From Chitinophagales bacterium (GTDB lineage Bacteria; Bacillota; UBA5301; DYFA01): DNA of 62,895 nt. The notes under the pieces were generated by a model. That model made no database searches. It saw nothing but the letters and a program-made list of their open reading frames with translations, and was not told where the DNA came from. The stretch spans positions 1-62,895 of the forward strand of contig JBLNBQ010000180.1 of the NCBI GenBank assembly GCA_050260095.1, written 5' to 3'. Position numbers and translations under genes: made by a program. Shown here one piece after another: positions 11,290-43,590 of this stretch (position 1 is its first letter; each line of letters opens with the position of its first letter).

Positions 11290-11820
11290 TTGACCAAAGA
11301 CGTGATCGACTGCATCCGGGAGCGCCGGAGCGTGAGGCGGTGGCAACCCGCCGAAGTGCCCGACGCCACCCTCGGCCGGTTGCTCGAATGCGCGGTGCTC
11401 GCCCCCAGCGCCGGCAATACCCAGGCGTGGCACTTCTACGTCGTGAAGGAGCGAACCCGGCGCCAAGCCCTCGCCGCGGCCGCCAACCACCAGCTCTTCA
11501 TCGCGGAGGCGCCGGTCATCATCGGTGTCTGCGCCGACCTCCCGCGCATCGCAAACCGCTACGGCCAGCGGGGGGTCACGCTGTACGTGCTGCAAGACAC
11601 GGCGGCGGCGATTCAGAACCTCATGCTGGCCGCCAACGCCTTCGGCCTGGCGACGTGCTGGATCGGGTCGATGGACGAGCGGGCGGTCGCGCAGGCGCTC
11701 GAGATCGCCGATCCCGGAGAACGCCGGCCTGTCGCGCTCATCCCGGTCGGCTATCCGGCCGAGGAGCCGGCTCAGCGGCCGAGGCGGCCCATCGACGAGG
11801 TGGTGACGGTCTTCGCCTGA
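11290..11820 (+). CDS. Nitroreductase-family oxidoreductase
   Basis: IRERRSVRRWQPAEVPDATLGRLLECAVLAPSAGNTQAWHFYVV and a C-terminal IPVGYPAE match the NfsA/NfnB-like fold signature. TTG start follows GAAAGGGGAG. Confidence 0.85.
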   Translation: MTKDVIDCIRERRSVRRWQPAEVPDATLGRLLECAVLAPSAGNTQAWHFYVVKERTRRQALAAAANHQLFIAEAPVIIGVCADLPRIANRYGQRGVTLYVLQDTAAAIQNLMLAANAFGLATCWIGSMDERAVAQALEIADPGERRPVALIPVGYPAEEPAQRPRRPIDEVVTVFA

Positions 11821-13739
11821 GGGGCTTCGGGCAGGGGCGCGCGGCGGGCCAGGACGACCCGGTTGCGCCCCTGGGCCTTCGCCCGGTAGAGCGCCTCGTC
11901 GGCCCGGGCGACCAGATCGTGGGCGGTCGACGCCTCGTGCGGGAAGGACGCCACGCCCAAGGAGACGGTGACCCGCCCGAGGGGCTGGCCGTCATCGCCG
12001 GCGAGGCTCAGCCCGGCCACGCCCCGCCGGATGCGTTCGGCCACCACCAGGGCCTGGCTGGAGGGAGTCTCGGGCAGCAGGACGCAGATCTCCTCCCCGC
12101 CGTAGCGGAACACCTGGTCGACCGTGCGCACGCTGTTGCTCACCACCTCAGCCACCCGCCGCAGCACCACATCGCCGCTCAGATGGCCGTAGAGGTCGTT
12201 GTAGCGCTTGAAGTGGTCGATGTCCAGCATGAGGAAGGACAACTCCCGCCCGTAGCGCTCGGCCCGCAGCACCTCTTCCGACAGGCGGGCCTCCAGGCGC
12301 CCGACGTTGTACAGGCCGGTCAAGGCGTCGCGGACCGACCGCTCTTCCGCCTCTTCGTGCAGGCGGGCGTTCTCGATGGCCATCGCGGCATGGGTGGCCA
12401 GGGTCCAGAGAAAGGCTACATCGTCCTCGGCGAAACCCGAGGGACCCTCCCTGACGCAGGTGAGCGCCCCGATGCGCTTCGTTCCCGTCACCAGCGGGAC
12501 GCAGAGACAGCACCCTCCCCCGCCCGGCTCGCCGCGTCCCACGGCCGCGTGCGCCAGTTCCGTGACCTCCGCCGTCAAAAGGCTGGGCGGCCCGTAGGTG
12601 GCGGCGACCGCCAGCCCGCCGTGCTCCCGCGCGAGGTGCAAGACTCCCGCTTCCGCGCCCAGGAAGAAAGTGGCCTCCTGCAACACGGAGGAGAGGACGG
12701 CCTCGAGTTTGAGCGATTCCGTGAGGCGCCGTGAGATCTTGAGCAGGGCTTCCATCTGGTCGGCCTTGTGCCGGACGCGCCGGAACCGGCCGGCGTTGGC
12801 GAGGGAGATCACGGCCAGGCCGGCGAAGGAGGCCAGCATCGCCACGTCGTCCCAGGTGAACCGGACGGCCTCCCGGAGACTCCCCACCGCCAGCACGCCC
12901 GCCGGCGTCCCTTCGAAGAGAAGCGGGACGACCACCGCCGACTGAAAACCACGGCCCGGCCAGGCCGCGACCGTTTCCGCCCCAGCCGGTCCCGCCGCAG
13001 CCTCTTCCGCTTGCAAGAGCACGGGGCTGCCGGTGACCAGCGGCCGCCCGAGCGGCCCTTCGCCCGGCACGATGGTCCGCTCTTGCTCCGTGAACGGCAG
13101 GTTGAACGCGTCCACCACCCGGAAGGCGCCCGCCTCGGCCTCCCACAGCGCGAGGCAGCCGGCGGACCCGCCCAACAGCTCGACCGCACTCTGCACGATC
13201 TTGGGCGAGAGTTCCGGCACGTCCGCCACCGGCAGCACGGCCTGCGAGAGGTCGAGCAGCGTCTGTTGCACCTGCAGGCGCCGTTCCCGCTCCCCCACCA
13301 GTTGGTTCCGCTCGAGGAGCACGGGCAGCAGGTCGCAGAGCGTGCGGAAACCGGGGCGCTCCACGACCCGCAAACCGTCGCGCCCCGCCGCGAACAGGGC
13401 GACCACCCCGAGCAGCCGGTCACCCAGGCAGAGCGGCGCGGCGGCCGACCGCCCGTCGTCGGCGAAGGTCGGCCGGCGGAGTTCGGCCGCCCGCGCCGCC
13501 AGGCCACCCGGCGGCGACTCGAGCCGCTGGCGACCCAAGTTGCGGATGACGAGCAGCGGGAGGCCGTGCGACGCCACCATCCGCAGCTCATGCTGGGGTG
13601 GGTCGTACAGGAAGAGGGCCCCGGCGTCGACCGCGGCGGCTTTCACGAGATAGGCCAGCGCGCGGCGCATGAAGACCTCGGGGCTGTGCCCGGTGGAGAG
13701 TTCCCGGAGAAAACCCGAGAGCAGTCCGGATTCGTCCAT
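11772..13739 (-). CDS. Multi-GAF sensor diguanylate cyclase (GGDEF)
   Basis: C-terminal RDALTGLYNVGRLE...LLMLDIDHFKRYNDLYGHLSGD...FRYGGEEICVLLPET...VSLGVASFP...ADEALYRAKAQGRNRV, with a GGEEI active site. Three GAF-like segments lie upstream. Start is the ATG at 13739 (MDESGLLSGF). The remaining 466 N-terminal aa of ORF 11772..15137 are antisense to a real gene. Confidence 0.85.
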   Translation of the reverse strand: MDESGLLSGFLRELSTGHSPEVFMRRALAYLVKAAAVDAGALFLYDPPQHELRMVASHGLPLLVIRNLGRQRLESPPGGLAARAAELRRPTFADDGRSAAAPLCLGDRLLGVVALFAAGRDGLRVVERPGFRTLCDLLPVLLERNQLVGERERRLQVQQTLLDLSQAVLPVADVPELSPKIVQSAVELLGGSAGCLALWEAEAGAFRVVDAFNLPFTEQERTIVPGEGPLGRPLVTGSPVLLQAEEAAAGPAGAETVAAWPGRGFQSAVVVPLLFEGTPAGVLAVGSLREAVRFTWDDVAMLASFAGLAVISLANAGRFRRVRHKADQMEALLKISRRLTESLKLEAVLSSVLQEATFFLGAEAGVLHLAREHGGLAVAATYGPPSLLTAEVTELAHAAVGRGEPGGGGCCLCVPLVTGTKRIGALTCVREGPSGFAEDDVAFLWTLATHAAMAIENARLHEEAEERSVRDALTGLYNVGRLEARLSEEVLRAERYGRELSFLMLDIDHFKRYNDLYGHLSGDVVLRRVAEVVSNSVRTVDQVFRYGGEEICVLLPETPSSQALVVAERIRRGVAGLSLAGDDGQPLGRVTVSLGVASFPHEASTAHDLVARADEALYRAKAQGRNRVVLARRAPLPEAPQAKTVTTSSMGRLGR

Positions 13740-13928
13740 TTGCCGCCTGCCTTGGGGGATGCGCGCCCCATCAGAATAGCAATAAGTTCCACCAACGCCA
13801 GCCCGTTCCTGCTGCCGGCTCCGGCCCCTCCGCTGCCGCCACTTCCCACAAGGTGACTGCTCCAGCGAGGCGTAATCCCACCGTTTAGCTGCACCTTCGC
13901 GTTCCCGATCCGTATTATGGCATGAGGA

Positions 13929-15203
13929 GTGGCACTTGCGGTGCGGGGAAGATCGCTGCGTACGATCGTTGGATTGGTGATCCTGGGTGCAGGAGCGGCA
14001 GCCGCGGCGTTCGCGCTTCCCGCGGCCCAAAGCCTCAGGGACGACACGGCCCGTCCGGCCGGCGCCGGCAGGCAGGTCCGCCTTGTGACGCCGCCGGTGG
14101 GCGCCCTGCTCGACCCGCAGCGGCCCGACCGCGCCGGCACGCTTCACCTGGCGGCGCCCACCTCGCCGTATGATGCGACGAGGCTGCTCGTACCCCGGCC
14201 GTTCCAGGGGGAACGGGTCGAGCGCCCGAATCCCGTCCACGGCATCTACCTCACCGGGTGGGTCGCCGGCCTGCCCGGCCGCGTCGGTGCGCTGCTCCGG
14301 CTGGTCGACGAAACCCCGCTCAACACCATGGTCATCGACGTGAAGGATGACGAAGGGACGCTCACCTACCGCATGGCCCTGCCGCCGGGCGTAGGTCCCG
14401 GCATCGAGCCTTCCCTCAAGGTCGCCGACATCGACGCCCTGCTCGCCACCTTGCGCGAGCACGGGGTCTACACCATCGCCCGGGTGGTCTCCTTCAAGGA
14501 CCAGGTCCTGCCGAAGGTCCGCCCCGACCTGGCTGTCCAAAAGCCCGACGGCTCCGTCTTCTGCGACCGGGCCGGGTTCATGTGGGCCAACCCCTATTCC
14601 CGGCAGGTCTGGGAGTACAACGTCGCGGTGGCGAAGGACGCCGCCTCCCGCGGCTTTGGCGAAATCCAGTTCGATTATGTGCGCTTCCCGGACGTCCCCA
14701 AGTCGCTCAGCCTGGTCTTCCCGGGCCAGGACGGGCGGAGCAAGGCGCAGGTCATCCGGGACTACCTGGCCTACGCGCGCCGGGAACTCCTGCCCTACGA
14801 CGTCAAGGTTTCGGCCGACATCTTCGGCCTGGTCACGACCGTGAAAGACGATCTCGGCATCGGGCAGAACCTGGAGGCCGTCGCTTCGGTGGTCGACTAC
14901 CTGAGCCCGATGACCTATCCTTCCCACTACGCCCGGGGCGAGTTCGGCCTGTCCGACCCCGACGCCGTCCCCTATGAGACGGTCTACCTCTCCCTCCGGG
15001 ATGCGGTGCGACGGCTCAGGGCGGCCGGGCTGGACGCCGGGCTCGTGCCGTGGCTGCAGGACTTCTCCCTGCGCCACCGCTATGGGCAGGACGAAGTGCT
15101 CGCCCAGGTCAACGCGGCGGCCGACCTCGGCATCCACGACTGGTACCTCTGGAACCCGGCGAACCGTTACACGGCGGCGGCGCTCCAGCGCCTGGCGAGG
15201 TGA
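13929..15203 (+). CDS. Putative secreted TIM-barrel glycoside hydrolase (DUF4015-like)
   Basis: Signal/anchor LRTIVGLVILGAGAAAAAFALPAAQ. Then VHGIYLTGWVAG...TPLNTMVIDVKDDEGTLTY...FMWANPYSRQVWEYNVAVAKDAASRGFGEIQFDYVRFPD. The GTG at 13941 may be the real start. Confidence 0.55.
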   Translation: MALAVRGRSLRTIVGLVILGAGAAAAAFALPAAQSLRDDTARPAGAGRQVRLVTPPVGALLDPQRPDRAGTLHLAAPTSPYDATRLLVPRPFQGERVERPNPVHGIYLTGWVAGLPGRVGALLRLVDETPLNTMVIDVKDDEGTLTYRMALPPGVGPGIEPSLKVADIDALLATLREHGVYTIARVVSFKDQVLPKVRPDLAVQKPDGSVFCDRAGFMWANPYSRQVWEYNVAVAKDAASRGFGEIQFDYVRFPDVPKSLSLVFPGQDGRSKAQVIRDYLAYARRELLPYDVKVSADIFGLVTTVKDDLGIGQNLEAVASVVDYLSPMTYPSHYARGEFGLSDPDAVPYETVYLSLRDAVRRLRAAGLDAGLVPWLQDFSLRHRYGQDEVLAQVNAAADLGIHDWYLWNPANRYTAAALQRLAR

Positions 15204-18901: not shown

Positions 18902-20269
18902 TCACATCGTCAGTTTCCCCTGCGGGGTGCTCACGATCTTGAGGATCCGCTCCTCGCGGCCGGTCTTGGCGTTCACGTAAACGTAGTACGGCTCGTTGTC
19001 CTGGGTGCACTTGAACTCCCAGGCGAGCGATTCTTCGCCCGCCACCTCCCGCGGGATCACCGTGAGCTGGGTGCCCTGCACCGTGAGCCCGTCCTTCAGC
19101 TTGGCCCGGGCCTGCTCGGCCGTGATGGTCGGAGTCAGATCGGCTTTGCTGCGGGTATGGTGATTGGTCAGGTACTGCAGGGCGTCGAAGCTCAAGACCT
19201 CGCCGCGGTCGAGGGCGACGGCCACCTTGACCATGTCAGGATAGATCAGCACGTTGTTCTCCACGGCCACGTAGGGGAAGGTCACGACGCCGCCCACCGT
19301 CTGGGCGTAGGATTCCCGCAGTTCCGGCAGGTCCAGCTTGCGGAGGAAGTCCCGGGCGGCCCGCGCGGCGTCGGCGGAACTCAGCCGCGGCGGTCCCGGC
19401 GGGCGGGTGTTCACCGCCCAGACGACGTGGCCGCCCTTCTGCGAGACGTCGGCCGCCATCCGCGGCAGATCCCCGCCGGTCGGGACCAGGTCGAAACCGT
19501 AGGCCACCAGCCGGCCCCGGGTCATCCCCTTGAACCGGGCGCGGTAACGGGCGGGGTCGGGCGTCAGGCGCAGCGCCCGGCGGGCCGCCTCGGCCTGGCT
19601 GACGTTCGATCCGGTGAGCCCCCGCGGCGAGAGCTTGTCGATCCGGTCGGAGAACGGGCCGTCGTACTGCAGCGTCGGGTAGTCGGCCATCGCCCGGTCG
19701 ACGCTCTTGAAGTTGTCGGTGACGGCGTTGCCCCCGGGGCTATCGCTCTGGCCCACCCGCCGCGGGTTAGGCGTCCGGTTGGTCAGCCAGTTGTAGTTGC
19801 CGGCGGCCGCCATCCGCTGCAAGCCGTGCAGTTCTTTGCCGAGCGCCACCGCCTGCCGGCGCAGCCGGGTCATGGTGGCCAAGTCTCCGTCGGTCATCTT
19901 CTGGCCGCCGGCCCGCTTGCGGGCCATCACGTAGGAGAAGTCGCCGACCTGGGTCAGGAACTTGCTGGTGCGCATGAAGGCGCCGCTGCGCACGGGCAGC
20001 CGTGAGAGCGCCGCCTTGCCCAGGTTGGACTGCCGCCACACGTCGGTCAACTGGTTTAGAATCTGATCGCTGCTGCTGGCGACCGTCCCCTTGCCGAGCC
20101 TGACCTCGACGGCGTCGACGTAGCTGACCAGGTCCAGGAAGGCCGCGTTATAGGTCGCGTTCAGGCGATTGGAGATGTAGTCGGCCCGGCGCCGCTCAGT
20201 GTTCCCCCACCAGATGGCCGTCAAGGCCACGATCGTGAGGAACCCGACGGCCACTTTCCAGGTGCGCAA
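18902..20269 (-). CDS. ypeB: Germination protein YpeB (PepSY-domain, SleB partner)
   Basis: N-terminal anchor, NRLNATYNAAFLDLVSYVDAVEVRLGK...SKFLTQVGDFSY, and C-terminal PepSY-like repeats. It lies immediately downstream of a SleB-type hydrolase gene, as in Bacillus sleB-ypeB. Confidence 0.85.
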   Translation of the reverse strand: MRTWKVAVGFLTIVALTAIWWGNTERRRADYISNRLNATYNAAFLDLVSYVDAVEVRLGKGTVASSSDQILNQLTDVWRQSNLGKAALSRLPVRSGAFMRTSKFLTQVGDFSYVMARKRAGGQKMTDGDLATMTRLRRQAVALGKELHGLQRMAAAGNYNWLTNRTPNPRRVGQSDSPGGNAVTDNFKSVDRAMADYPTLQYDGPFSDRIDKLSPRGLTGSNVSQAEAARRALRLTPDPARYRARFKGMTRGRLVAYGFDLVPTGGDLPRMAADVSQKGGHVVWAVNTRPPGPPRLSSADAARAARDFLRKLDLPELRESYAQTVGGVVTFPYVAVENNVLIYPDMVKVAVALDRGEVLSFDALQYLTNHHTRSKADLTPTITAEQARAKLKDGLTVQGTQLTVIPREVAGEESLAWEFKCTQDNEPYYVYVNAKTGREERILKIVSTPQGKLTM

Positions 20270-20284
20270 GAGAATCCTCCTTCC

Positions 20285-20767
20285 TCACAGGGCGAAGACG
20301 TGGTTGCCGATCTGGCGAATGATCGTGCGGGACCAGATCCACGGGCTCACGGGTTTCGACGGGTTCCAGAAGAAGGTGCAGCCGTACGTGGGATCCCAGC
20401 CGCTGACTGCGTCGATGGCGGCCCGCCGCTCCGTCCAACTCGGTTCACGCTGCCAGATCAGACCGACCTCCACCGACTCGAACGCCCAGGGCTGGTAGAT
20501 CACCCCGGCGATCGTCCCTGGGAAAGAGGGGTTCTTGGTCCGGTTGAGCACCACCGCCCCGACGCCCACCTGCCCTTCGTAGGGTTCCCCCTGCGCCTCG
20601 GCGGCGATCAGCCGGGCCAACAGGTCGATGTTGGCCCCGGCGTCGGGCTGCGCCCGGACGTAGGTCCAGTACTGGAACTGAGGGATCAGGTAGTTCTCGG
20701 TCACCACACAACCGACGAATGCGAGCACCATGAGCAACAACAGGACAAGGGAACGGCGCATGGTCAA
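20285..20767 (-). CDS. sleB: SleB/CwlJ-type spore cortex-lytic hydrolase, catalytic domain only, lipoprotein-like signal
   Basis: LLARLIAAEAQGEPYEGQVGVGAVVLNR...FPGTIAGVIYQPWAFE...IGNHVFA matches Hydrolase_2. The N-terminus MRRSLVLLLLMVLAFVGC resembles a lipobox. No peptidoglycan-binding domain is present. Confidence 0.85.
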   Translation of the reverse strand: MTMRRSLVLLLLMVLAFVGCVVTENYLIPQFQYWTYVRAQPDAGANIDLLARLIAAEAQGEPYEGQVGVGAVVLNRTKNPSFPGTIAGVIYQPWAFESVEVGLIWQREPSWTERRAAIDAVSGWDPTYGCTFFWNPSKPVSPWIWSRTIIRQIGNHVFAL

Positions 20768-21752: not shown

Positions 21753-23594
21753 TCAGAGGGTGTGGCAGCTCGTGACGCAGTCGGCCTTCTGCCAGTTGCC
21801 CGAGCCCGGCAGGTACGGCTGGCCCAGTGCGTCCCGGGCAAAGGCGATCTTCGACCCGGCGTTGTACGGGTACGGATCGGTCCGTTCCACCAGCATGGCC
21901 CGGTTCTTGTAGCCGTGGGGCACCCCGGCGTGACAACTGGTGCAGGCGACCTGGTGGTACGGGGCGCCGTGTAGGCTGGTACCTCCCGGACTGCGAAAGC
22001 CGGTGTTGCTGCCCAGCCCGTCGAGGTAGAGGGCCGGATCGTGGCACTTGAAGCAGAGATGCCCGCTTGTTCCCGGGCTCCCGGTGGGCGCCGAGGCGGC
22101 GGGCGCGGACGCCCCTTGATGTACCCAGGGAGCTTTCAGGATAAAGGGATTCTCCGAGCCATGCGGTCCAGACGGACCGTTCCCCGCAGCGCCGTGACAA
22201 TCGCAGCAGCTGAGAACAGTCTCCCAGCTCCACGCCTTGCCGGTTCGGTCCGACCCACAGAACGCACCCGGCCACATCAAGTCGCGATGGGCGTGCCCAC
22301 TCACCACGGCGTGCAAGCCCCCGTTGTTTGGATTGAACGCCACAGCGGGGCTGGTCTGAGGTGAGGCGGAAAGTCCATCAAGGGTACGGCGAGAGGGCGA
22401 AACCGGCGGATTCAGCCCATAACTATAGCCCGAGTGACACTTGAAGCAAAGCTGGTATTCGAAAGAGATGGAGTTGCTCTCGACACAGGAGGGCTCCGAC
22501 CAGGGAAGTCCCAAGTACTGGACGCTCACTCCGCTCGCCCCCTGCAGCGCGCCGAACACACCCGGAGCTGCCGGGTGAGACTGCGCTGCGACATGTGGGT
22601 TATGGCAATCCACGCACTCGGAGTGGCGATCCAGGCTCGGCACAGAACGCCTGGTTTCACGGGGATCGTGCGGAGCAAGGCCCAGTTCATGACGGGCTGG
22701 CATGGCCTGAGCCGCCGCGATGTTGGTGCCGCACTCTCCGTTATGGCAGACCAGACAGCCATCGGAACCCACTTCCCGCCCGAGCCGCTCGGGTTGGCGC
22801 GCTTGGTGCGGTTTATGGCAACTGAGGCACGCGGCCTGCGCCACCGTGCTGAAGGAAGGGCGCAAGCCCAAACTGGCGGGGATCGGCCGCTCAGAAGCCA
22901 AGGCGTGCCCGCTGCGGTCCCAGCCCGCCACGACGTGGCAGGTTATGCACAGCGTCCCCCCGTAAGTCCCGGTCCGGTCGACCGGTCGCTTGACCAGGAA
23001 CGGTTCAAATTCGGGATCATGGGGCGAGTGACAGGTCGTGCACTGGACCCGCCCCGCCTCATCCAGCCGGACCGGATCTCCAGGCTGGGGCGGTCGGAGT
23101 CCTGGCTTGGCTGCGGGAAAAGGTCTGCTCACCGGATGATCATCGCGGAGGTCCGTTTCAAGTCGGGCGTGGCCCGGTGGAACAGCGCCCCGCACATCGA
23201 CATTCGCCATGTTCCGATAGCCGTTACAGAGCTCACCCAAGGCGACCGTACCGTCATGACAACTGAGGCAAAGGGTGGAAACCCCATTGGGTTGCTCGGG
23301 CGGGGAGGCCACCGTGCTGCTCTGATAGACTTCGTAGTACTGAGAGCTGAGCTTGTGACTGAACAGGTAAGCCTCCTGATTTGCGTGATGTGGAACATGA
23401 CAAAACACGCAGACCTGCGTCTCCGTGTAGGAAGTGATGGGCCCCATCCCTCCGACCGAAAAGTCGTGTTTCGAGCCGCGAATGGTTCCCGCTGACATCG
23501 TCGGGCAGCTGAATCCTGCAAGCGCCGCGGTCAGAGCGGCCACGGTCGCGAGCCGCATCAGGTGACAGGCGGGTCGAGTGCAGAAGGACTCCAT
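21753..23594 (-). CDS. Large secreted multiheme c-type cytochrome (11 CXXCH plus 1 CX3CH)
   Basis: Heme motifs: CVFCH, CLSCH, CTTCH, CITCH, CLSCH, CLVCH, CVDCH, CFKCH, CCDCH, CFKCH, CTSCH, and a terminal CVTSCH. The N-terminal ~200 aa are paralogous to the two tetraheme proteins (GSKHDFS...VCVFCHVPH...CLSCHDGTVAL...DDHPV). Hydrophobic signal MRLATVAALTAALAGFSC. Start is uncertain (23594 or 23558). Confidence 0.85.
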   Translation of the reverse strand: MESFCTRPACHLMRLATVAALTAALAGFSCPTMSAGTIRGSKHDFSVGGMGPITSYTETQVCVFCHVPHHANQEAYLFSHKLSSQYYEVYQSSTVASPPEQPNGVSTLCLSCHDGTVALGELCNGYRNMANVDVRGAVPPGHARLETDLRDDHPVSRPFPAAKPGLRPPQPGDPVRLDEAGRVQCTTCHSPHDPEFEPFLVKRPVDRTGTYGGTLCITCHVVAGWDRSGHALASERPIPASLGLRPSFSTVAQAACLSCHKPHQARQPERLGREVGSDGCLVCHNGECGTNIAAAQAMPARHELGLAPHDPRETRRSVPSLDRHSECVDCHNPHVAAQSHPAAPGVFGALQGASGVSVQYLGLPWSEPSCVESNSISFEYQLCFKCHSGYSYGLNPPVSPSRRTLDGLSASPQTSPAVAFNPNNGGLHAVVSGHAHRDLMWPGAFCGSDRTGKAWSWETVLSCCDCHGAAGNGPSGPHGSENPFILKAPWVHQGASAPAASAPTGSPGTSGHLCFKCHDPALYLDGLGSNTGFRSPGGTSLHGAPYHQVACTSCHAGVPHGYKNRAMLVERTDPYPYNAGSKIAFARDALGQPYLPGSGNWQKADCVTSCHTL

Positions 23595-23619
23595 TCCACT
23601 CTCACACTCCCATGGAGGA

Positions 23620-24444
23620 TTAGTCCCTCCGATAGTCGAGACGGCGGTGACAACCACAAAGGCATCCACCGCCGGTGGGAGTCTCCGTGAACACGATGGG
23701 CAACTCCCACTGGCCGAAGGTCACGCGCCTTCGAATGAGGTGGGGCTGCTCCGAACCATGGGCCTCGTGACATACCCAACATGAGCGACCTTTGTTCGGG
23801 TCATTCACGTGGAAGTAGTGGTCACTCTTTCGCCCGTTCCGAAAGTTGGTCGCGTCTTTTGTTTCGGATGCCACAACCAAAGCCTCGGGATGACACTTGA
23901 AGCATAGCGCGAAGCGCCGGCTCGTGAAGGGGGCGTAGAACCGGCTGTCGAAGGGAGCCTTCAGCAGTTGTCGGTACGGCGAGTTGTGCGCTTCATGGCA
24001 AGCGGTGCACTTCCCTTCGGCGACGGGTCGATGGACAGAGTTCCGGGTCATCTGCTGGGCAATCTTCGGGTGGCACTTGGTGCATAAAACCCCTTGCGGT
24101 TGCTTCAGCAAGGCCGGGTAGGCTGATTCATGTGGGTCGTGGCAGGTGGAGCACGGCTGCTCCCGCACCACCTGATGCCTCACCCCGACCGCCATCTGAT
24201 CCTGAAGGTCGCGGTGACAAAAGAAGCACAGCTCCCGTTCAGGCGCGGCCAAGCCATGGGGGCGTGCGGCATCGTGCGCCACATGGCAGACATCGCAACG
24301 GCCGGCAGAATACGGCCCGTGCCTGAAGGTCCCTCCGTTCTGATTCGCTGCGGGCGCCCCTGCCGCTTCGGCCCGCCCCAAGGCCAGTAGCGCCAAGAGA
24401 GTGAGCCAAAGGGGGAACCGGCGGAGGCAGGCCACTGATCCCAC
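23620..24444 (-). CDS. Secreted octaheme-type c-type cytochrome (7 CXXCH plus 1 CX3CH), cytochrome c3/c7-like repeats
   Basis: CDVCH, CFFCH, CSTCH, CTKCH, CTACH, CFKCH, CWVCH and a C-terminal CLCGCH. Repeated C..CH.(P/A)H.S.Y..LL spacing. Signal VACLRRFPLWLTLLALLALGRAEA. GTG at 24444 follows GGAGGGG. Confidence 0.85.
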   Translation of the reverse strand: MGSVACLRRFPLWLTLLALLALGRAEAAGAPAANQNGGTFRHGPYSAGRCDVCHVAHDAARPHGLAAPERELCFFCHRDLQDQMAVGVRHQVVREQPCSTCHDPHESAYPALLKQPQGVLCTKCHPKIAQQMTRNSVHRPVAEGKCTACHEAHNSPYRQLLKAPFDSRFYAPFTSRRFALCFKCHPEALVVASETKDATNFRNGRKSDHYFHVNDPNKGRSCWVCHEAHGSEQPHLIRRRVTFGQWELPIVFTETPTGGGCLCGCHRRLDYRRD

Positions 24445-24461
24445 CGGAACACCCCTCCAGC

Positions 24462-25259
24462 CTACTTCTTGTGGCAGGTCAGGCAGAGCGCGCTTCCGTC
24501 GTTGGAACAACGGAGAAACGGCCGGAAACCAGGGTCGTGCACGGCGTGACAGGAACCGCACTCGACCTTGTTAGAGTACAGCCGAACCCCGTTTGGCCAG
24601 AGCTCTCGAGCCGGAACCGGCTCAAATCGGTCGGCGTAAGTGGTCGGGTCGGGGTAGTTGACCCCCACCGGGTGGTCATCGGTCAAATCCTGGGTCAGGT
24701 AGTGACCAGAATAGTCCGCCGCGGCACCGATGGGACTCGCGTCGTGGCATGAAACGCCGCAATCCCAGAACGCGTTGTTGCTCTGACTGGCGGCCGCCAT
24801 CTTCCCGTGGAAAGGAACCTCGGTGGGGTACGCCGGGTTCGTCCACCCGCCTGGGTTGGGCCGACCGCCGGGACGACTCATGGGCATTCTGATCACGGAG
24901 TCGACCGCGATCGTGCCGTCATGGCATGATAGACACATCAAGGACGAGTTGCCGGGTGCACTCGGTGCGCTGATCATCGTCCAACTCCGGTAGACCGGGT
25001 AGCTCCCGGGATCGGGAAGGCTGCGGTTCCAGAGCATCGTCACCTGGGTGGATGCGTTGTGGGGAGTGTGGCAGTAGACGCAGACCTGATTATAGTCGTT
25101 ATAGGTGTTCCAGAAGGTCATGCTTGGAGACTGCATGGCATGCGAGAGATCGTGCAGCGAGCCGACGATGGTCGAAGCCTGAGCAACCATTGAACAGGCA
25201 ATGATGATGGTGGACACCACAGTAATCAGATGCAAAGGCAGCCTGTGCTGAGAACGCAA
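24462..25259 (-). CDS. Secreted tetraheme-type c-type cytochrome with doubled-CXXCH C-terminus (paralog of 28117..28968)
   Basis: IVGSLHDLS...VCVYCHTPHNAS...LWNR...CLSCHDGTIAV...CGVSCH (CX3CH)...DDHPVG...CGSCHAVHDPGFRPFL...CLTCHKK. TTG start at 25259 lies 8 nt after AGGAGG. Confidence 0.85.
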   Translation of the reverse strand: MRSQHRLPLHLITVVSTIIIACSMVAQASTIVGSLHDLSHAMQSPSMTFWNTYNDYNQVCVYCHTPHNASTQVTMLWNRSLPDPGSYPVYRSWTMISAPSAPGNSSLMCLSCHDGTIAVDSVIRMPMSRPGGRPNPGGWTNPAYPTEVPFHGKMAAASQSNNAFWDCGVSCHDASPIGAAADYSGHYLTQDLTDDHPVGVNYPDPTTYADRFEPVPARELWPNGVRLYSNKVECGSCHAVHDPGFRPFLRCSNDGSALCLTCHKK

Positions 25260-25275
25260 CTGAACCACCTCCTGA

Positions 25276-27228
25276 TCAAAAACAGCGTCTGACCCCGAAC
25301 TCCAATCTCCCTCGGGCGGCATCCCTGCCTAGGTCCTCTTCAAGTCCAGCCTCCAGGTTCACGCTCAACAAGCCAAGGCGGTAATCGGCCCGGAAGTCGG
25401 TCGTCAACTGATGCCGGGTCGCATTCACGAAGTTGCGGACGTAACCCAGCGACGCAGAGAGTCTCAATCCAGGCCTTGGGTTGGCGAGGGCTTGGATCCC
25501 AGTCTGAACTGCCTTGTCCTCCACTGCCCGACCAGCCTCTCGATCAGTCCGCACCAGGGCCTGTGCAAAACCTTTGAGCCGGAAGAACCCCTCCTCGACC
25601 AACTGGTATTCGCCCCGTACCACGTCCCTGCGCAGAGCGGCATCGGAAGACTTCTCCCGATCACAACGCCAAGTCAACGTGAAGGGGTCCCGCGTGTAGA
25701 CGAAGGCCACGTTGGCCAGCCTGTTATGATCCTCCCGGTACACCGTGGTCGTGAGACTGAACGGGCCATCCGCCAATGCCAGTTGTTGGCTTGACCCATA
25801 ACTATTTACTATTCTGTTCCCTCGTTCCAGCGAATATTCGCGGTCGTGATAACTAGTGAGCCCGCAGCGGAAGGACAGCGTATCGGCCGTTGTGGAGGCA
25901 GTCAGGTTTCCCGTATAGGTGATTCGTTCGGAATCTCCAGCGGGGCGCTGGGTGTCGTAGCTCACTCGGACTTCCTTGATTGAGGGGTCGCCGCGCCAGA
26001 TGAGATCCACCGCGGGGGCCACGTCGTCGTTCACACCAAGGGGCAGCCAGAGTTCGTAATCGATGCCGCGGGTGAAGACGCGGTGACCCAACGAGACGCG
26101 GATGCTGTCAACCACGACGTTGGCACCCTGCAGCCGGGCTGGTCCCTCAGTGGTGCAGACGATCTCGCCCAGGACCGGCCGAATGATGTTCCCCTGCCCT
26201 CTCTCCGGCAGCCACCCTCCTGTTGCACCGAGAGTTAATCTCAGTGGACCTACGTCCCCATTCCACTGCAGTCCTCCTTCGGGTCCCAGCGCTTCCCGGG
26301 AGACGTCCCCGCTCTCGTAGAACCGTGCCTTTTCGCTCAGCGATCCCTGCCATCCTTTTCCCAGACTCGCGGTGGTGGAGACTTCGCCCTTGACCTCAGT
26401 TACCAGACGGCTCTCAACCCGAGTCCGGTTTGCTTCGAGCGTAAGCGTCGAAGCCCAGTTCTCTCGGTGCTGAAGATCCAGCGTCTCAGCCAGGCGAGTT
26501 TCCTCTCCAGGTCGATCGCCCTCGACCAGATTTCTTTGATAGGACGATCGCAGGTGGAGCAGGTCGTATAAGAAGTAATTGTCGAGCGCAGTCTTGAGCG
26601 TGCTCCCTTCAGCCGAATGCCCACTCAACCGGTCGAGCGCATACCGGCGATTCCACTCGAAGTCGAGTGTCGCGTCGCGTCCGAACTGCCGTCGATTGGA
26701 GAGCGCATAGTCCAGCGTCAGCATGTCTTCGGGGATCTCCGGATCTTCAAGTACCCGCTCGGTGGCCGTGTACCTGGCGGTGATGGGTTGTTGCCACGTG
26801 CCAAGCAAACTGAGAACACTCACCGTGTCAGTCTCCAGTCGGCAAGACGGACGGAAGTCCTGGTGCAGCTCCTCAGACTGGATACTCCCGGTGACGAAGG
26901 TGCGGACGAGAGAGAGCGGCAGGACCTGCAGGTCGATGTTTCCGTCCTTAACGCGCACGGACGAGGCAGTGGCCAGCCGGCCCTGTGCGTTCCAACTCAA
27001 CAGGTACGGATGGAGCGAGTACCCAGCCAGTTGAACGCTGAGGCCTTGCTCCGGCGACCCCGTCAGCAAACGTTGGTCACCTTGTCTCGCATAGGTCAAC
27101 GTCTCACTCAAGTCCAGGTTCGCGGTCCAGTCGCTGACCCTGAAGATCGGCCACGATTCGGCAACTGCTCCCAATTGAAGCACGAAGAGAAGCGCCACCA
27201 GCATGGCGAGGCCAGATCCCCGGCTCAT
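25276..27228 (-). CDS. Predicted outer-membrane beta-barrel (porin-like) protein embedded among cytochrome genes
   Basis: Signal peptide MSRGSGLAMLVALLFVLQLGAVAES. About 620 aa of amphipathic alternating-residue segments rich in Y/W/R/D/G/T/S (for example TLDFEWNRRYALDRL, STLTLEANRTRVESRLVTEVKGEVSTTASLG, LRLSASLGYVRNF, TTDFRADYRLGLLSVNLEAGLEE). C-terminal ...LEFGVRRCF ends in Phe. I recognised no cofactor or enzymatic motifs. Confidence 0.6.
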   Translation of the reverse strand: MSRGSGLAMLVALLFVLQLGAVAESWPIFRVSDWTANLDLSETLTYARQGDQRLLTGSPEQGLSVQLAGYSLHPYLLSWNAQGRLATASSVRVKDGNIDLQVLPLSLVRTFVTGSIQSEELHQDFRPSCRLETDTVSVLSLLGTWQQPITARYTATERVLEDPEIPEDMLTLDYALSNRRQFGRDATLDFEWNRRYALDRLSGHSAEGSTLKTALDNYFLYDLLHLRSSYQRNLVEGDRPGEETRLAETLDLQHRENWASTLTLEANRTRVESRLVTEVKGEVSTTASLGKGWQGSLSEKARFYESGDVSREALGPEGGLQWNGDVGPLRLTLGATGGWLPERGQGNIIRPVLGEIVCTTEGPARLQGANVVVDSIRVSLGHRVFTRGIDYELWLPLGVNDDVAPAVDLIWRGDPSIKEVRVSYDTQRPAGDSERITYTGNLTASTTADTLSFRCGLTSYHDREYSLERGNRIVNSYGSSQQLALADGPFSLTTTVYREDHNRLANVAFVYTRDPFTLTWRCDREKSSDAALRRDVVRGEYQLVEEGFFRLKGFAQALVRTDREAGRAVEDKAVQTGIQALANPRPGLRLSASLGYVRNFVNATRHQLTTDFRADYRLGLLSVNLEAGLEEDLGRDAARGRLEFGVRRCF

Positions 27229-28049
27229 CAGCCGCCCACCCCCTGCGGCGTTTCGTGCGCCTTATGACAGGCCAGGCAGTCACGCCTGCCCCGCCCGCCG
27301 TCACAGGAGAGTTGACCCGAGGGGTGGCAGCGGAAGCACAGTTCGGCGGTGAGTTGCTGCCTGAGCAGCCGAGCAGCTTGGGAGGCATGGGGATCATGGC
27401 AGGCCAGACAGTCACCGATCGCAACCGGGCCGTGAGTCACTCCCTTGCCATACTTGGGGTCGGTGTGGCACGTCCGGCAAAGATCTCCACGTTCGGACTT
27501 GAGGAAGAACCGGCGGTCGCCGCCGTGGGGGTCGTGGCACTTGGGGCACTTGCCCTCCCGGACGGGCTGGTGGATGGTGAACCCCTCCCGAAAACCGTCC
27601 CTGCCGCCCCAGGCGAAATCGTGGCAACCCAGACAAAGACTTGGCAGTCCGGCGGTGGTATGGTTGGGGTAGGCTGTCTCATGGGAAGTGTGACATCCTG
27701 AGCAGTCCCCGACTGCCACTGGCCCGTGCTGGCGGCTACGCTCGAAGTCGTTCTTCTTGTGGCAGAACCAGCAGAGGTCGGCTCCTTTGGCCAGGAGTTC
27801 TGACCCCTTGGTCAAGTCGTGGCACTTGTTGCACTCCATGTTGCGGTAGGGGGGGTGAACCTTCTTCTCATCCACCGGTACAGAGGTGTCCGTTTCCTCG
27901 ACCACGGCCTGGCGGGCTTTGAGCCCGTGTTTCAGTTCATACCGTTCCTTCGCCACAGCCAGATAGGCCGGGTCAACCAAGCATCCGGCCGAGGTCGAGA
28001 GGAGCAGTACCAACAGGGACATGAGCGCATACCGCCGCCAGACCTGCAT
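27228..28049 (-). CDS. Nonaheme c-type cytochrome lipoprotein
   Basis: Lipobox-like LLLSTSAGC. Nine CXXCH motifs: CNKCH, CWFCH, CSGCH, CLGCH, CPKCH, CRTCH, CLACH, CFRCH, CLACH. Its stop overlaps the start of the barrel gene (ATGA). Confidence 0.85.
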   Translation of the reverse strand: MQVWRRYALMSLLVLLLSTSAGCLVDPAYLAVAKERYELKHGLKARQAVVEETDTSVPVDEKKVHPPYRNMECNKCHDLTKGSELLAKGADLCWFCHKKNDFERSRQHGPVAVGDCSGCHTSHETAYPNHTTAGLPSLCLGCHDFAWGGRDGFREGFTIHQPVREGKCPKCHDPHGGDRRFFLKSERGDLCRTCHTDPKYGKGVTHGPVAIGDCLACHDPHASQAARLLRQQLTAELCFRCHPSGQLSCDGGRGRRDCLACHKAHETPQGVGG

Positions 28050-28067
28050 GGAAACGTCCCTCCGTGG

Positions 28068-28103
28068 AAAACCAGGGCTGGAATCCGGCCGTCCCAGCCC
28101 TGG
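28068..28103 (-). terminator. Intra-operon hairpin/partial terminator after the first tetraheme cytochrome gene
   Basis: The minus strand reads CCAGGGCTGG-13 nt loop-CCAGCCCTGG followed by TTTT, between the stop at 28117 and the next start at 28049. Confidence 0.5.
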
Positions 28104-28116
28104 CTCATCAGTAGGA

Positions 28117-28968
28117 TTACTTCACGTGGCAGGAGAGGCAGAGCTTGGACCCGTCCATGGACTCCCGGAGGAACGGCCGCAGGTCGGCGGTGGCTCCCGG
28201 CTCATGGACGTTGTGGCAAGTGTCGCACTCCATGTACGCTGCACCTGTGCCGTTTTCAGTGGGACCGCCAACGCTGATACCGGTGCCGCCCCACAGCGGG
28301 AGCTTGGCCGGGTAGTTCGCGCCGTTGCCAGCGGTGTAGGTCCGGGTGCCGATGATGGTCGTTCCAACGAGGCCAACCGCCTGGTTGTTGTTGGTCCGCT
28401 CGTTCCGGTAGGCCGCGATGTAGTCGAAGCCGACCGGATGGTCATCGGCCATGTTGACGCCCAGGTTGGCGCCGCGGGTTGACAGGATCTTTCCGTCCGC
28501 TGTGACCACAGGCGAGCCTGACAAGAAGGCGCCCACCGTGGTATAGCTGGGATCAGGGCTCGTCACGCCGAAATCCATCTTCCGCTTGACCTGGCGGAGG
28601 GCGATGGTGCCGTCGTGGCAAGAGAGGCAGAGATCGGTGCTGGTTCCGCGGAAGACCCCGCTTCCGGTGCCACCCCATACGTTGGTATGGGTCTGATCGC
28701 CGCCGTCCAAGGTCCAGCTGGCGTATCGGCCCTCCGGCGCCCCGAACTTGCGGTTCCACAACGGACCCTTGGTGTCGGAGTTGTGCGGCGTATGGCAGTA
28801 GATGCAGACCTGCTTGTTGCCGTCGGCTCCATCGCTCCTCACGGTAGCGTCGCCAGAGGGGGACAAGTCGTGCTTGGACCCAACGATCGTGGCCCCGACC
28901 GCGCTGGAGAAAGAGAGCACCAGACTCGCCACCAGCACGAGGGTCAGAGTTCTCTTCACGTTCTTCAC
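28117..28968 (-). CDS. Secreted tetraheme c-type cytochrome with doubled-CXXCH C-terminus
   Basis: Signal KRTLTLVLVASLVLSFSSAVGA, then TIVGSKHDLS...VCIYCHTPHNS...PLWNR...CLSCHDGTIAL...DDHPVG...CDTCHNVHEPG...RPFL...CLSCHVK. Three in-frame GTGs sit in a 9-nt repeat. The second (28968) has the best spacing to GGAGG. Confidence 0.85.
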   Translation of the reverse strand: MKNVKRTLTLVLVASLVLSFSSAVGATIVGSKHDLSPSGDATVRSDGADGNKQVCIYCHTPHNSDTKGPLWNRKFGAPEGRYASWTLDGGDQTHTNVWGGTGSGVFRGTSTDLCLSCHDGTIALRQVKRKMDFGVTSPDPSYTTVGAFLSGSPVVTADGKILSTRGANLGVNMADDHPVGFDYIAAYRNERTNNNQAVGLVGTTIIGTRTYTAGNGANYPAKLPLWGGTGISVGGPTENGTGAAYMECDTCHNVHEPGATADLRPFLRESMDGSKLCLSCHVK

Positions 28969-29041
28969 GTTCTTCACCTCCTTATATAGGTCTGTGGGCC
29001 TGGGGTCGGGCCGCCGGTAGCCGTCCCCGTAAGTCCCCGGG

Positions 29042-30085
29042 TCAGTCGCTCCCGAGGAACTGGAAAACCTGCACCCGTGCGTTAAGCTGATCGACTACGT
29101 AGAGCCGGTTCTGGGCGTCGATGCACATCCCCGCGGGCAGGTGGAATTCGCCGGGCCCGGCCCCGCCGGCCCCGACGAAGAGCAGGAGCTGGCCTTGCTG
29201 GTTGAAGATCTGGAAGTTGTTGAACGCAGCGTCCACCACGTAAAGGTTCCCGTCGCTATCTAGCGCGGCGCCTCGCGGCCGGCTGAAACAGCCGGGCCCG
29301 TCACCGAGCTGACCGATCGCCTTGAGGAACTTGCCGTTCTGGTCGAAGACCTGCACCCGGAAGTTCATCGTGTCGACGATGTAGATATGATGGTTCTTGT
29401 CCACCGTCACGTTGGTGGGGTAGTTGAAGTACCCGTCTTTGTTCCCGTTGCCGCCGATGGTGGAGAGCGGCGTGCCGTCGGTGCGGTAGACCTTGACCAC
29501 GTGCCCCTTGGAATCAACCACGTACAACCGGCGAAGCTTGCTGTCCACCGCGATGCCGGCCGGATTCTTGAGCTCCCCCTCCTGTCCGACGGCCCTGACG
29601 GGCTCCCCGGCCCGGTTGAAAGCATAGACGCAGCGGGCTTCGGCGTCGGACACCCAGATGGTGTCCTCCTCCTCGTCAATAGCAACCCCAATCGGGACTT
29701 TGAGCTGAATGCGGCCTTTGACTCCGATCTTCCACGCCTTGCTGGCCTTCTTGTCGAACACCACGAGCGCCGGGTTCTTGCCGGTCTCCGTCACGTAAAT
29801 CCGGCCGGCCTTGTCCACCGCCACGCTGTACGGCTTCTCGAGTGCCACAGAGGGTGGCTGGGCCCCCACCAACAACTGCTGCAAAGCTGAACGCTTATCC
29901 GCGCCTATGTCCTTGGAAGTAGAAATGGCCTCCACCCACCGGATCCGCGGCTTCTCCGGCGGCAGGGGCCAGACGAGGTCTATCTTCTTGGCCGGGGTCT
30001 TCTCCGCGGCCAGACTGCCGGCGGCGCCCATCGTGAGAAGCGCCGCGAGGGTGAGAAGAATGAAGAACCGTGATCCCCGTGTCAC
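29042..30085 (-). CDS. Secreted six-bladed NHL-repeat beta-propeller protein
   Basis: Signal FFILLTLAALLTMGAAGSLAA. Six NHL-type blades: PYSVAVDKAGRIYVTE, PIGVAIDEEEDTIWVSD, PAGIAVDSKLRRLYVVD, PTNVTVDKNHHIYIVD, PRGAALDSDGNLYVVD, PAGMCIDAQNRLYVVD. GTG at 30085 follows AGGGAGGGA. Confidence 0.85.
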   Translation of the reverse strand: MTRGSRFFILLTLAALLTMGAAGSLAAEKTPAKKIDLVWPLPPEKPRIRWVEAISTSKDIGADKRSALQQLLVGAQPPSVALEKPYSVAVDKAGRIYVTETGKNPALVVFDKKASKAWKIGVKGRIQLKVPIGVAIDEEEDTIWVSDAEARCVYAFNRAGEPVRAVGQEGELKNPAGIAVDSKLRRLYVVDSKGHVVKVYRTDGTPLSTIGGNGNKDGYFNYPTNVTVDKNHHIYIVDTMNFRVQVFDQNGKFLKAIGQLGDGPGCFSRPRGAALDSDGNLYVVDAAFNNFQIFNQQGQLLLFVGAGGAGPGEFHLPAGMCIDAQNRLYVVDQLNARVQVFQFLGSD

Positions 30086-30332
30086 AGCCGTTCCCTCCCT
30101 GTCCTGGGCCCGCCCGCCCAAAAGCGGAACCCGCACGCAATAGTTCCGGCAATGGCTCGTCCTGGAAGCCACTCTTAATATAGTCAGTTGCTGCCGGCTC
30201 TATGCTCGCAAGTGCGGACAAGACTGGTCGGCCCATGCCCCGAAGCCCAAGGGTTCCATCATTCTACCTGCGTTATAGCGCTTAGCTGGGGAAGTCTAGT
30301 ATCAGCCCATGATGAAGGGAGGGAATCAAACG

Positions 30333-30793: not shown

Positions 30794-31564
30794 CTATTCA
30801 GGCAGTTTCGGGATGGGCGGCAGGCTCCGCTTGTGGGCGGAGGCGCGCCCGAGCTGCTCGACCCTGGTCCGGATGGCCTCGGGCGCCTCCCCGGTAACGA
30901 GGTACCGGTCGAGTTCGGCGTAGCTGAACCCGAGTTCGCCCTCGTCGGTCTGCGCCTCCCACAGGCCGGCGGAGGGCGGCCGGTCGATGACGGCCTGCGG
31001 CACCCCCAGCTCCCGGGCGAGCGCCCTGACCTCCGCCTTGACGAGCCCACCCAGGGGCAGCAGGTCGACCCCGCCGTCGCCGTACTTGGTGAAGTAGCCG
31101 ACCGCGAGTTCGGAGCGGTTCCCGGTGCCGGCGACCAGGTAGTTGCGGGTGTTGGCGTGGTAGTAGAGGGTCAGCATGCGCAGGCGAGGCTTTAGGTTGG
31201 CCGCGGCGAGGCGAGTCTCGCTCGGTTCGGGCGGCAGCACCTGGCGAAGATGGTCGTAGACCGGGGTCAGGTCGACCTCGCGGGTCTCGAGGCCGAAGGC
31301 GGCCGCGACCGCCTGGGCGTCCCTGGTGTCGGACGGGTGCGAGTGGCAGGGCATGATCACCCCGAGGACGCGTCCCGGCAGCGCCCGGGCGGCCAGCCCG
31401 GCGACCACCGCCGAATCGATCCCGCCCGACAGCCCCACGGCCAGCCCTTTGGCGCCGGCCGCCTCGACCTGCCCGGCGAGCCACTCGGCGAGCAGGGCCA
31501 CCGCCGCCGGCGGATGCTCTAGGGTCCAGGTTCGGAAGGCCCCGGAAGAGGCGCCGGTGGTCAT
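30794..31564 (-). CDS. nadE: NH3-dependent NAD+ synthetase
   Basis: GLSGGIDSAVVAGLA P-loop, NLKPRLRMLTLYYHAN, GTGNRSELAVGYFTKYGDGGVDLLPLGGL, SAGLWEAQTDEGELG. Confidence 0.92.
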   Translation of the reverse strand: MTTGASSGAFRTWTLEHPPAAVALLAEWLAGQVEAAGAKGLAVGLSGGIDSAVVAGLAARALPGRVLGVIMPCHSHPSDTRDAQAVAAAFGLETREVDLTPVYDHLRQVLPPEPSETRLAAANLKPRLRMLTLYYHANTRNYLVAGTGNRSELAVGYFTKYGDGGVDLLPLGGLVKAEVRALARELGVPQAVIDRPPSAGLWEAQTDEGELGFSYAELDRYLVTGEAPEAIRTRVEQLGRASAHKRSLPPIPKLPE

Positions 31565-43331: not shown

Positions 43332-43590
43332 TTTCCAACCATCCTTTCCGATTTGGCTTGTCCAAAGCCTGCCGAGAGTGCCTTGAAAATTCGAACAACC
43401 GTTGGTGCGAAAATTCCTCCTTTCCTGCCAGGACAGGAAGGGCTTGTACTCTGGCACTACGCTGTGCCGCTCAGGGTATTTTCCGCCCGTCCGGACAAAT
43501 CCTGCCGGCTTTGCGGACCACATTTTCCCCGCACCCTGGCAGGAGCGACGGAAAACGGGTCAGAACCGTCTGTCAGGGGAGGGCGGAAAG

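Follow-up and report, generated by a model that had tools for sequence, protein, structure and literature searches.

A predicted outer-membrane beta-barrel from a spore-forming Bacillota contig as a highly diverged relative of the barrels encoded beside OmcE-like cytochromes

The export and anchoring of cytochrome nanowires, and their electrical connection to the periplasm, are an acknowledged open question (PMC12307469; bioRxiv 10.1101/2025.10.22.684050). A preprint of 2025 by the Bond, Hochbaum and Wang groups describes the gene clusters of the nanowire cytochrome OmcE as containing 'a large beta-barrel protein' that 'putatively' functions 'as a secretion or anchor', and reports such clusters from Thermodesulfobacteriota, Pseudomonadota, Aquificota, Campylobacterota and Nitrospirota, five phyla in all (bioRxiv 10.1101/2025.10.22.684050). 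For the export or anchor role, the foremost candidate is the large barrel encoded in OmcE and OmcS clusters, for which there is no curated family, no structure and, in the sources consulted, no genetics. Here we describe a barrel gene located at 25276..27228 on the reverse strand of a 62,895-nucleotide stretch of DNA (contig JBLNBQ010000180.1 of assembly GCA_050260095.1, analyzed as a whole and called the window below). By profile comparison, this protein is a highly diverged member of an uncurated family of barrels encoded beside OmcE-like tetrahaem cytochromes and, unlike the clusters from the five phyla, its host is a spore-forming Bacillota.

The described system closest to the locus is, as judged from gene content, the OmcE nanowire cluster. 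The OmcE clusters of the Desulfuromonadia (Geobacter, Desulfuromonas soudanensis) share with the window an OmcE homolog, propeller protein(s) and multihaem cytochromes, together with a single very large barrel, all on one strand, and the barrel of those clusters, like ours, falls into no curated family. The two differ in that the window has a nine-haem lipoprotein cytochrome coupled to the barrel, and additional five-haem OmcE-like and eight-haem MtrA-like genes in place of a second propeller. The initial annotation had likened the locus to MtrA/B or OmaB/OmbB pairs; the gene content points away from both, and a small cytochrome before the barrel is absent from about 60% of the related loci described below, so that a pairing of the MtrA/B type does not define the system. 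A looser parallel is the osc cluster that accompanies omcS in G. sulfurreducens, for which roles in folding (OscH), secretion (OscEFG) and morphology (OscD) are proposed, placing proposed secretion proteins and a beta-propeller (OscD) beside a nanowire cytochrome (PMC13194489). It belongs to the hexahaem OmcS system, not to OmcE, and the likeness is one of description only.

Family membership was established by sequence and profile searches. A single-sequence HMMER pass over 1.84 billion cluster representatives (phmmer, E<=0.001) returned five relatives of the barrel, namely two full-length proteins at 32-33% identity (P0002 and P0003), two fragments, and P0006 at 22%. Across three Bacillota-type lineages that share the gene order, the barrel retains 20-33% identity. 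Joint Genome Institute (JGI) metagenomes were scanned with an alignment of OmcE-like proteins, yielding 80 loci with 1,834 open reading frames (ORFs); the OmcE-like genes of these 80 loci all stand at 43% identity or less with G. sulfurreducens OmcE. The six-sequence barrel profile (no iteration, default HMMER filters), searched over the full set of 1,834 ORFs, gave two matches, at 59.7 and 35.0 bits. Local jackhmmer gathered 31 ORFs of 550-880 amino acids, all encoded on the same strand as the OmcE-like gene, free of CXXCH motifs and in most cases ending in R-[RK]-x-F; when the profile was run on these 31 candidate barrels with the filters off, about ten scored at least 17 bits, including 59.7, 37.2 and 35.0. 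Finally, hhalign comparison of the Bacillota-type alignment with an alignment of the metagenomic proteins alone gave a probability of 99.8% and E=1.6e-29, with 592 aligned columns that run through the full length of both proteins. Motifs common to both groups are Y-x-x-H-P near the N-terminus, P148, Y391, Y424, G478 and the terminal R-x-F, and the barrel is only 12-17% identical to the metagenomic members. The profile searches and the hhalign alignment thus place the barrel, which is no orphan, in the family of the OmcE-type clusters, for which about 35 members, an alignment and conserved motifs are now defined.

No identical record of the protein was found by exact look-up, word-seeded searches started from the protein or from alignment A1 recovered nothing beyond the query, and a genome-collection scan with alignment A2 found no relatives of the barrel. 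The only Pfam match at E<=1 was the outer-membrane barrel family PF13557 (E=0.016, below cut-off), NCBIfam had no match, and a phmmer search of PDB sequences (E<=10) gave nothing, MtrB included. Ten metagenomic members likewise matched no Pfam or NCBIfam family, and a 22-sequence family profile searched against all PDB chains (hmmsearch, E<=10) found nothing, MtrB included. The earlier statement that the protein has no recognizable family is therefore true for the curated libraries; it fails for the broad uncurated family, of which the barrel is a diverged member.

Within this family, the motif Y-x-x-H-P-x-L-L (H73-P74 of the window protein P0001 in alignment A6) lies in the second or third strand, with the proline kept in 90% and the histidine in 63% of members, and ranks with the best-conserved features of the family as a whole; this histidine could be a haem or metal contact.

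The features of the barrel gene are as follows.

25276..27228, reverse strand: predicted outer-membrane beta-barrel of about 30 strands (650 amino acids; ORF and translation)
27160..27228, reverse strand: predicted signal peptide, residues 1-23, with cleavage between AVA and ESWP (read from the sequence; helix 4-20 in the AlphaFold2 model)
25945..26187, reverse strand: conserved beta-rich insert of about 80 amino acids, residues 348-428, placed after strand 17 and before strand 18 of the barrel; possible plug or collar
25279..25308, reverse strand: C-terminal strand RLEFGVRRCF, ending in the family motif R-x-F and resembling a beta-signal

The ORF is truly coding, since it has full-length homologs at 31-33% identity, keeps its synteny and shows a codon-position pattern of GC content (0.63/0.47/0.70 for the first, second and third positions). 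The cleavable signal peptide proposed in the initial annotation agrees with the N-terminus, MSRGSGLAMLVALLFVLQLGAVA followed by ESWP, which on reading has the look of a Sec signal peptide, and with the mature start E(S/T)WP common to P0002 and P0003. The RRCF ending was also borne out: among 30 family members, R648 is kept in 86% and F650 in 73%. Compared with a beta-signal, position -3 is a conserved arginine, not a hydrophobic residue. Cysteines occur at residues 129, 358, 455, 522 and 649, and an N-terminal CXXC is absent.

AlphaFold2 (AF2) run on the barrel sequence alone gave a mean predicted local distance difference test score (pLDDT) of 33, and we used instead the model built from a six-sequence alignment, which reached pLDDT 75.9 and is entirely beta. 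Its layout is 17 long antiparallel strands, the insert, and then 13-14 strands, joined by turns of 2-6 residues that are short on both sides. DSSP assigns 30-31 strand segments, a number counted from the segments of this moderate-confidence model and not from inspection of its coordinates; the barrel has 30 strands if strand 419-429 is assigned to the conserved insert. The dozens of short amphipathic stretches noticed earlier correspond to these strands. In a Foldseek search against the PDB, the top 50 matches listed were all large outer-membrane barrels of 22-36 strands (probability 1.00), including TonB-dependent receptors, LptD, Deinococcus SlpA and SprA; MtrB was not among these 50. Because the TM-scores were just 0.25-0.34 and the matches listed were all giant barrels, the modelled protein appears to share the general architecture of giant outer-membrane barrels without having a specific structural relative. 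Standard barrel geometry gives a calculated C-alpha diameter of about 54 Å for 30 strands, against about 47 Å for 26, a figure that was not measured on the model; a diameter of about 5.4 nm would correspond to a lumen of roughly 4 nm. These results support the prediction of a very large outer-membrane-type beta-barrel. Of the earlier description as an MtrB-sized barrel, the all-beta fold of about 30 strands and the listed matches, all outer-membrane barrels, sustain the barrel, and the strand number departs from the 26 of MtrB.

The remaining genes of the cluster, in transcription order, are listed below.

29042..30172, reverse strand: NHL-repeat six-bladed beta-propeller, first in transcription order (PF01436 NHL, E=1.5e-32)
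28117..28977, reverse strand: OmcE-like tetrahaem cytochrome, candidate filament subunit (phmmer against the PDB)
27228..28049, reverse strand: nine-haem, MtrA-like lipoprotein cytochrome (nine CXXCH, lipobox STSAGC)
27226..27231, reverse strand: TGATGA junction of the cytochrome stop and the barrel ATG
24462..25259, reverse strand: five-haem OmcE-like cytochrome (four CXXCH and one CX3CH), likely start TTG at 25259
23620..24444, reverse strand: MtrA-like eight-haem cytochrome (seven CXXCH and one CX3CH), likely start GTG at 24444
21753..23558, reverse strand: cytochrome of about 12 haems with an OmcE-like N-terminal part of about 200 amino acids, likely start ATG at 23558

All seven cluster genes, the barrel included, are on the same strand and intact; a scan of 20-32 kb for promoters and terminators was uninformative. 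The propeller has a signal peptide without a lipobox and a likely GTG start at 30085, and it occupies the same position in two Bacillota-type loci, L001 and L005, as well as in about 30 loci from metagenomes. The tetrahaem cytochrome aligns end-to-end by phmmer with the G. sulfurreducens OmcE nanowire (7TFS_A, E=4e-23; PMC12954529), keeps all four CXXCH together with the KHDLS, CHTPH, DHP and CHxVH histidines of OmcE, and also matches the D. soudanensis OmcE bundle (9YUQ, E=3.4e-16). The product of 21753..23558 contains 11 CXXCH and one CX3CH and, between residues 45 and 245 of the long ORF, matches 7TFS_A at E=1.5e-20; it is a candidate filament base, cap or adaptor that might co-polymerize with the OmcE-like subunit. 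According to the preprint, OmcE operons encode no tip candidate (bioRxiv 10.1101/2025.10.22.684050). For the five-haem gene, the TTG start at 25259 sits 8 nt after the AGGAGG that follows the barrel stop, and orthologs are found downstream of the barrel in L005 (5787-6563) and L006 (2963-3646). The eight-haem protein matches Paired_CXXCH_1 (E=2.6e-37), the MtrC/MtrF domain II/IV (E=1.9e-10) and 6R2Q chain A (E=4.1e-11). PDB entry 6R2Q is the Shewanella MtrCAB complex (PMC7198977), and its chain A was taken as MtrA from its 333-aa length, the molecule name attached to the chain being evidently a mislabel.

The fifth haem site of the protein encoded at 24462-25259 is a CX3CH in the sequence DCGVSCH; this paralog is similar to the '5-heme OmcE-like proteins' of the preprint, whose additional haem is exposed to solvent (bioRxiv 10.1101/2025.10.22.684050).

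About 30 of the metagenomic loci show a recurrent order: OmcE-like gene, NHL propeller, a small MtrA-like lipoprotein cytochrome in some, barrel, NHL propeller, and a cytochrome of 11-12 haems whose head is OmcE-like. Three kinds of partner accompany the barrel constantly: the OmcE-like subunit, one or more propellers, and this cytochrome of about 12 haems. The small MtrA-like lipoprotein, whose gene immediately precedes that of the barrel in about 12 of the 31 metagenomic loci, is optional in the family as a whole, but obligatory and translationally coupled in the Bacillota sub-family. The 11-12-haem cytochrome (about 560-670 aa, OmcE-like N-terminus) was near-constant, usually standing right after the second propeller (for example in L025, L029, L044, L068 and L085).

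From this combination of fold, family and neighbours, we consider it moderately probable that the barrel is the outer-membrane subunit of an OmcE-type, nanowire-type multihaem-cytochrome module for extracellular electron transfer (EET). The protein would be exported by Sec, lose its signal peptide and fold into an outer-membrane barrel of about 30 strands, with a C-alpha diameter of about 5.4 nm and a lumen of roughly 4 nm. As a wide portal, it could let a chain of cytochromes cross the outer membrane within it, and an extracellular OmcE-like polymer may be anchored, possibly assembled, on it. The coupled nine-haem MtrA-like lipoprotein would dock at or in the periplasmic mouth and feed electrons in, and the OmcE-like subunits (28117-28977 and 24462-25259) together with the 12-haem protein with its OmcE-like head would carry them outward; the insert of about 80 aa may act as a plug or collar. 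Several points weigh against this reading. The structural model rests on six sequences, its C-terminal strands have pLDDT below 60, and both barrel closure and the position of the insert are predicted, not measured. The link to the Geobacter and Desulfuromonas clusters is made by identical cluster composition, with no direct alignment of the barrels, and the window has one non-lipoprotein propeller whereas the OmcE clusters have two lipoprotein propellers. No genes for outer-membrane biogenesis (BamA, LptD, OmpM) are present in the 63-kb window, and the 'secretion or anchor' role is itself a hypothesis in the literature.

A bolder version of the EET module, which we hold possible but doubtful, is that the barrel forms the heart of an outer-membrane machine not characterized before, whose lumen carries the cytochrome polymer itself out of the cell, with the insert as a gate and the filament base charged in the periplasm by the lipoprotein, the whole machine having moved horizontally into a diderm spore-forming Bacillota. 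If it is true, spore-formers would make OmcE-type nanowires, and the locus would offer a compact, divergent machine for structural work.

The first competing explanation is a classical porin-cytochrome conduit, in which the barrel only sheathes the nine-haem MtrA-like protein and electrons pass to monomeric surface cytochromes, with no filament exported or anchored. The junction between the two genes speaks for it. The sequence ...GGC TGA TGA GCC places the cytochrome TGA and the barrel ATG in a TGATG overlap, and in L001, L005 and L006 the gene calls overlap by 4 nt at the same junction; because the overlap recurs in three homologous loci, translational coupling of the lipoprotein cytochrome and the barrel is conserved in all four Bacillota-type loci. 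The tight overlap described in the initial annotation is real and kept in the homologs; it consists of one shared base, not of a four-base ATGA. Its lipoprotein cytochrome with nine haems is likewise present, as described, and co-production of the barrel with this cytochrome, which resembles MtrA, is supported by the coupling kept in all homologous loci. This cytochrome matches Paired_CXXCH_1 (E=8.5e-45) and 6R2Q chain A (E=2.4e-10), and scores 84 bits with the DmsE/MtrA family, below the cut-off of 192. A small MtrA-like lipoprotein cytochrome also precedes the barrel directly in about 12 of the 31 metagenomic loci, and the barrel would be wide enough for a haem chain. The locus resembles MtrB/PioB systems in that a large outer-membrane barrel is encoded directly after an MtrA-like cytochrome, with a presumed role of taking a haem chain across the outer membrane.

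The conduit nevertheless seems unlikely to us. Most related loci have no small cytochrome before the barrel, while the OmcE-like, NHL and 12-haem proteins are constant, and the coupled cytochrome of L001 has three haems, too few to span a membrane alone. A sequence relation to MtrB/PioB was not detected: neither the Pfam family MtrB_PioB nor NCBIfam was matched, and 6R2Q chain B was not found even with the 22-sequence profile, so membership of the MtrB/PioB family is rejected. The window barrel has about 30 strands in the AF2 model versus 26 in MtrB (PMC7198977), lacks the N-terminal CXXC, carries a conserved inserted domain and has a lipoprotein cytochrome as its partner; where an MtrA-type periplasmic decahaem cytochrome would be expected, the window has an MtrA-like one with nine haems and a lipobox. 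The Geobacter porin-cytochrome complexes (OmbB-OmaB-OmcB, ExtABCD; PMC4282303) also have clustered genes, encoding a porin-like protein, a multihaem cytochrome of the periplasm and one or more lipoprotein cytochromes, but without OmcE-like subunits and NHL propellers as constant partners. No sequence relation to their barrels was detected in the pass over 1.84 billion representatives (phmmer, E<=0.001). The Geobacter porin-cytochrome barrels are predicted to be smaller, with about 20 strands.

The four barrel-coupled cytochromes (window 27228-28049, L005:2918-3760, L006:120-962 and L001:8704-9117) share the segment C-x-(x)-DPxYLxxAKERYE directly after the lipidated cysteine, and their haem number falls from nine to three in L001. 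The conserved DPxYLxxAKERYE segment may contact the barrel or a membrane.

The insert bears on a second alternative. The best-conserved columns of the family (E355, G388, D390, Y391, V420, V422 and Y424) fall within it, and it is present in about 22 of 30 members. The central segment that had been noted as less barrel-like (residues 346-395) lies in this region and can be recognized as a separate inserted domain. With strand 419-429 counted in the insert, the insert follows an odd-numbered strand, and it would lie on the extracellular side or be folded back into the lumen. No Pfam family matched it, and the best result of the family and insert profiles against the PDB was an immunoglobulin-like domain of an LPXTG protein at an insignificant E=0.14. 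We infer that it may be a small beta-sandwich domain acting as a plug or collar.

Ushers such as PapC and FimD are likewise wide barrels into whose middle a small beta-sandwich domain is inserted, and have a role, as proposed in the literature, as a platform for polymerizing an extracellular fibre. The barrel could by analogy be a secretion and assembly channel that exports folded OmcE-like subunits and serves as their polymerization platform, with the insert as gate or plug and no electrons carried. A porin-like route has been proposed in the literature, with ushers as the analogy; the very wide barrel with short loops, the beta-rich mid-barrel insert as the most conserved region of the family and the unfailing co-occurrence with an OmcE-like subunit would all fit. 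We regard this channel as quite improbable. The window barrel matches no Pfam usher family, no usher is among the 50 Foldseek matches listed, and it lacks the N- and C-terminal periplasmic domains of ushers. Ushers have 24 strands, against about 30 in the window barrel. A chaperone-like gene was not found in 21-31 kb with Pfam and NCBIfam, about a quarter of family members are without the insert, and the close coupling of the barrel with a multihaem lipoprotein points to that protein as a redox partner.

The NCBIfam model NF052337 ('phage tail tube protein, 6XGR type') gave sub-threshold matches over the insert in five of ten barrels (L025, L029, L057, L068 and L089), at 23-35 bits with a cut-off of 60, and none in the insert of the window itself. 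These matches may reflect a shared small beta-sandwich fold; an assignment of the insert as a tail-tube domain was rejected, all matches being below the cut-off.

The proposed outer-membrane subunit of an EET module requires a host with an outer membrane. The window has a GC content of about 68%, and a pair of genes for YpeB and a SleB-type hydrolase (18902-20767) flanks the cluster; because of these genes the host is identified as an endospore-forming, high-GC Bacillota, a point that the initial annotation did not raise. The nearest YpeB proteins are 61-64% identical, one cluster of them being labelled 'Bacillota bacterium', and the next tier (36-38% identity) includes a Limnochordales bacterium, the nearest named organism outside the clade of the window itself. 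Limnochordia are diderm Bacillota of about 70% GC (PMC11456536). We examined substrate-binding proteins of ABC transporters in two of the lineages.

42213-43523 and 52098-53219 (window): LivJ-type substrate-binding proteins, signal peptidase I (SPase-I) signals AYA/A and VFA/A
L001:19907-20869: Bmp-type substrate-binding protein, SPase-I signal AGA/K

All three have SPase-I signal peptides and no lipobox. In monoderm Firmicutes, substrate-binding proteins are normally lipid-anchored. The unlipidated proteins, together with the Limnochordia parallel, suggest that the host is likely diderm and has a periplasm. Among the other contigs of the family, L005 (which carries a SASP gene) and L006 have 65-67% GC, and L001-L004, labelled Bacillota, have 44%; no environmental metadata were returned for this 44% GC lineage.

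The cluster itself probably arrived from elsewhere. Two GTDB contigs from metagenome-assembled genomes, L007 (DYFA01000038.1) and L008 (JBLNCL010000032.1), keep the gene order that surrounds it in the window (polysaccharide deacetylase, in L008 only, then cyclophilin-like protein, rubrerythrin, SleB, YpeB, GH15 and onward) and lack nadE and all seven cluster genes. The GC content at third codon positions (GC3) of the cluster genes is 0.70-0.84, and within 0.70-0.76 in the last five, which begin with the nine-haem gene, compared with 0.88-0.92 in their neighbours. In view of these syntenic contigs and the lower GC3, the region 21753-30172 looks like a horizontally acquired island, loss in the relatives being less likely. 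The gene nadE (30794-31564), beside the cluster and absent with it from L007 and L008, is host-like with a GC3 of 0.92. The low GC that had been remarked on in the barrel gene is explained by the insertion: 25801..25860 does contain 26 G+C, the minimum among all aligned 60-nt lines of the window, and the next-lowest line (27 G+C at 26521) is in the barrel gene too, but the low GC belongs to the whole cluster of about 8.5 kb and not to this gene alone. The titles of L007 and L008, 'Aneurinibacillus sp.' and 'Betaproteobacteria bacterium', clash with their GC of about 65%, the YpeB and SleB genes and the synteny, and were judged wrong.

That the barrel is no working outer-membrane protein, being either non-functional cargo in a monoderm host or a protein of the cell wall or spore envelope with a non-barrel function, is in our view very improbable: the endospore genes YpeB and SleB, the lack of outer-membrane biogenesis genes in the window, the foreign codon usage of the insertion and the public labels of the relatives, which say only 'Bacillota', would agree with it, but all seven genes are intact, conservation at 20-33% identity with the same gene order across three Bacillota-type lineages indicates selection on the family, the substrate-binding proteins of the two lineages that were examined carry no lipid anchor, and diderm spore-formers exist in the Limnochordia.

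As a probable part of an OmcE-type module, the barrel is not categorically new; it is a diverged, Bacillota-specific variant of the OmcE-cluster barrel and adds a phylum and a cell type to those in which the system is described. The very divergent sub-family separates the constant elements (barrel, insert, R-x-F, OmcE-like subunit, propeller and 12-haem cytochrome with an OmcE-like head) from the variable ones (the second propeller and the small lipoprotein cytochrome), and this compact variant offers a test of what the barrel does. A whole module of this kind in spore-forming Bacillota, apparently moving by horizontal transfer, would, if conductive filaments are made, bear on iron cycling and on electron transfer between species in subsurface and engineered anaerobic systems.

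Two further observations concern the rest of the contig. A second SleB-type hydrolase, with three LysM domains, is encoded at 60049-61065, at the far end of the window. The contig also encodes a multi-GAF diguanylate cyclase of 1121 aa (11772-15137) and a PilZ-domain protein (61262-61942); cyclic di-GMP is reported to affect EET genes in Geobacter (PMC12285248).

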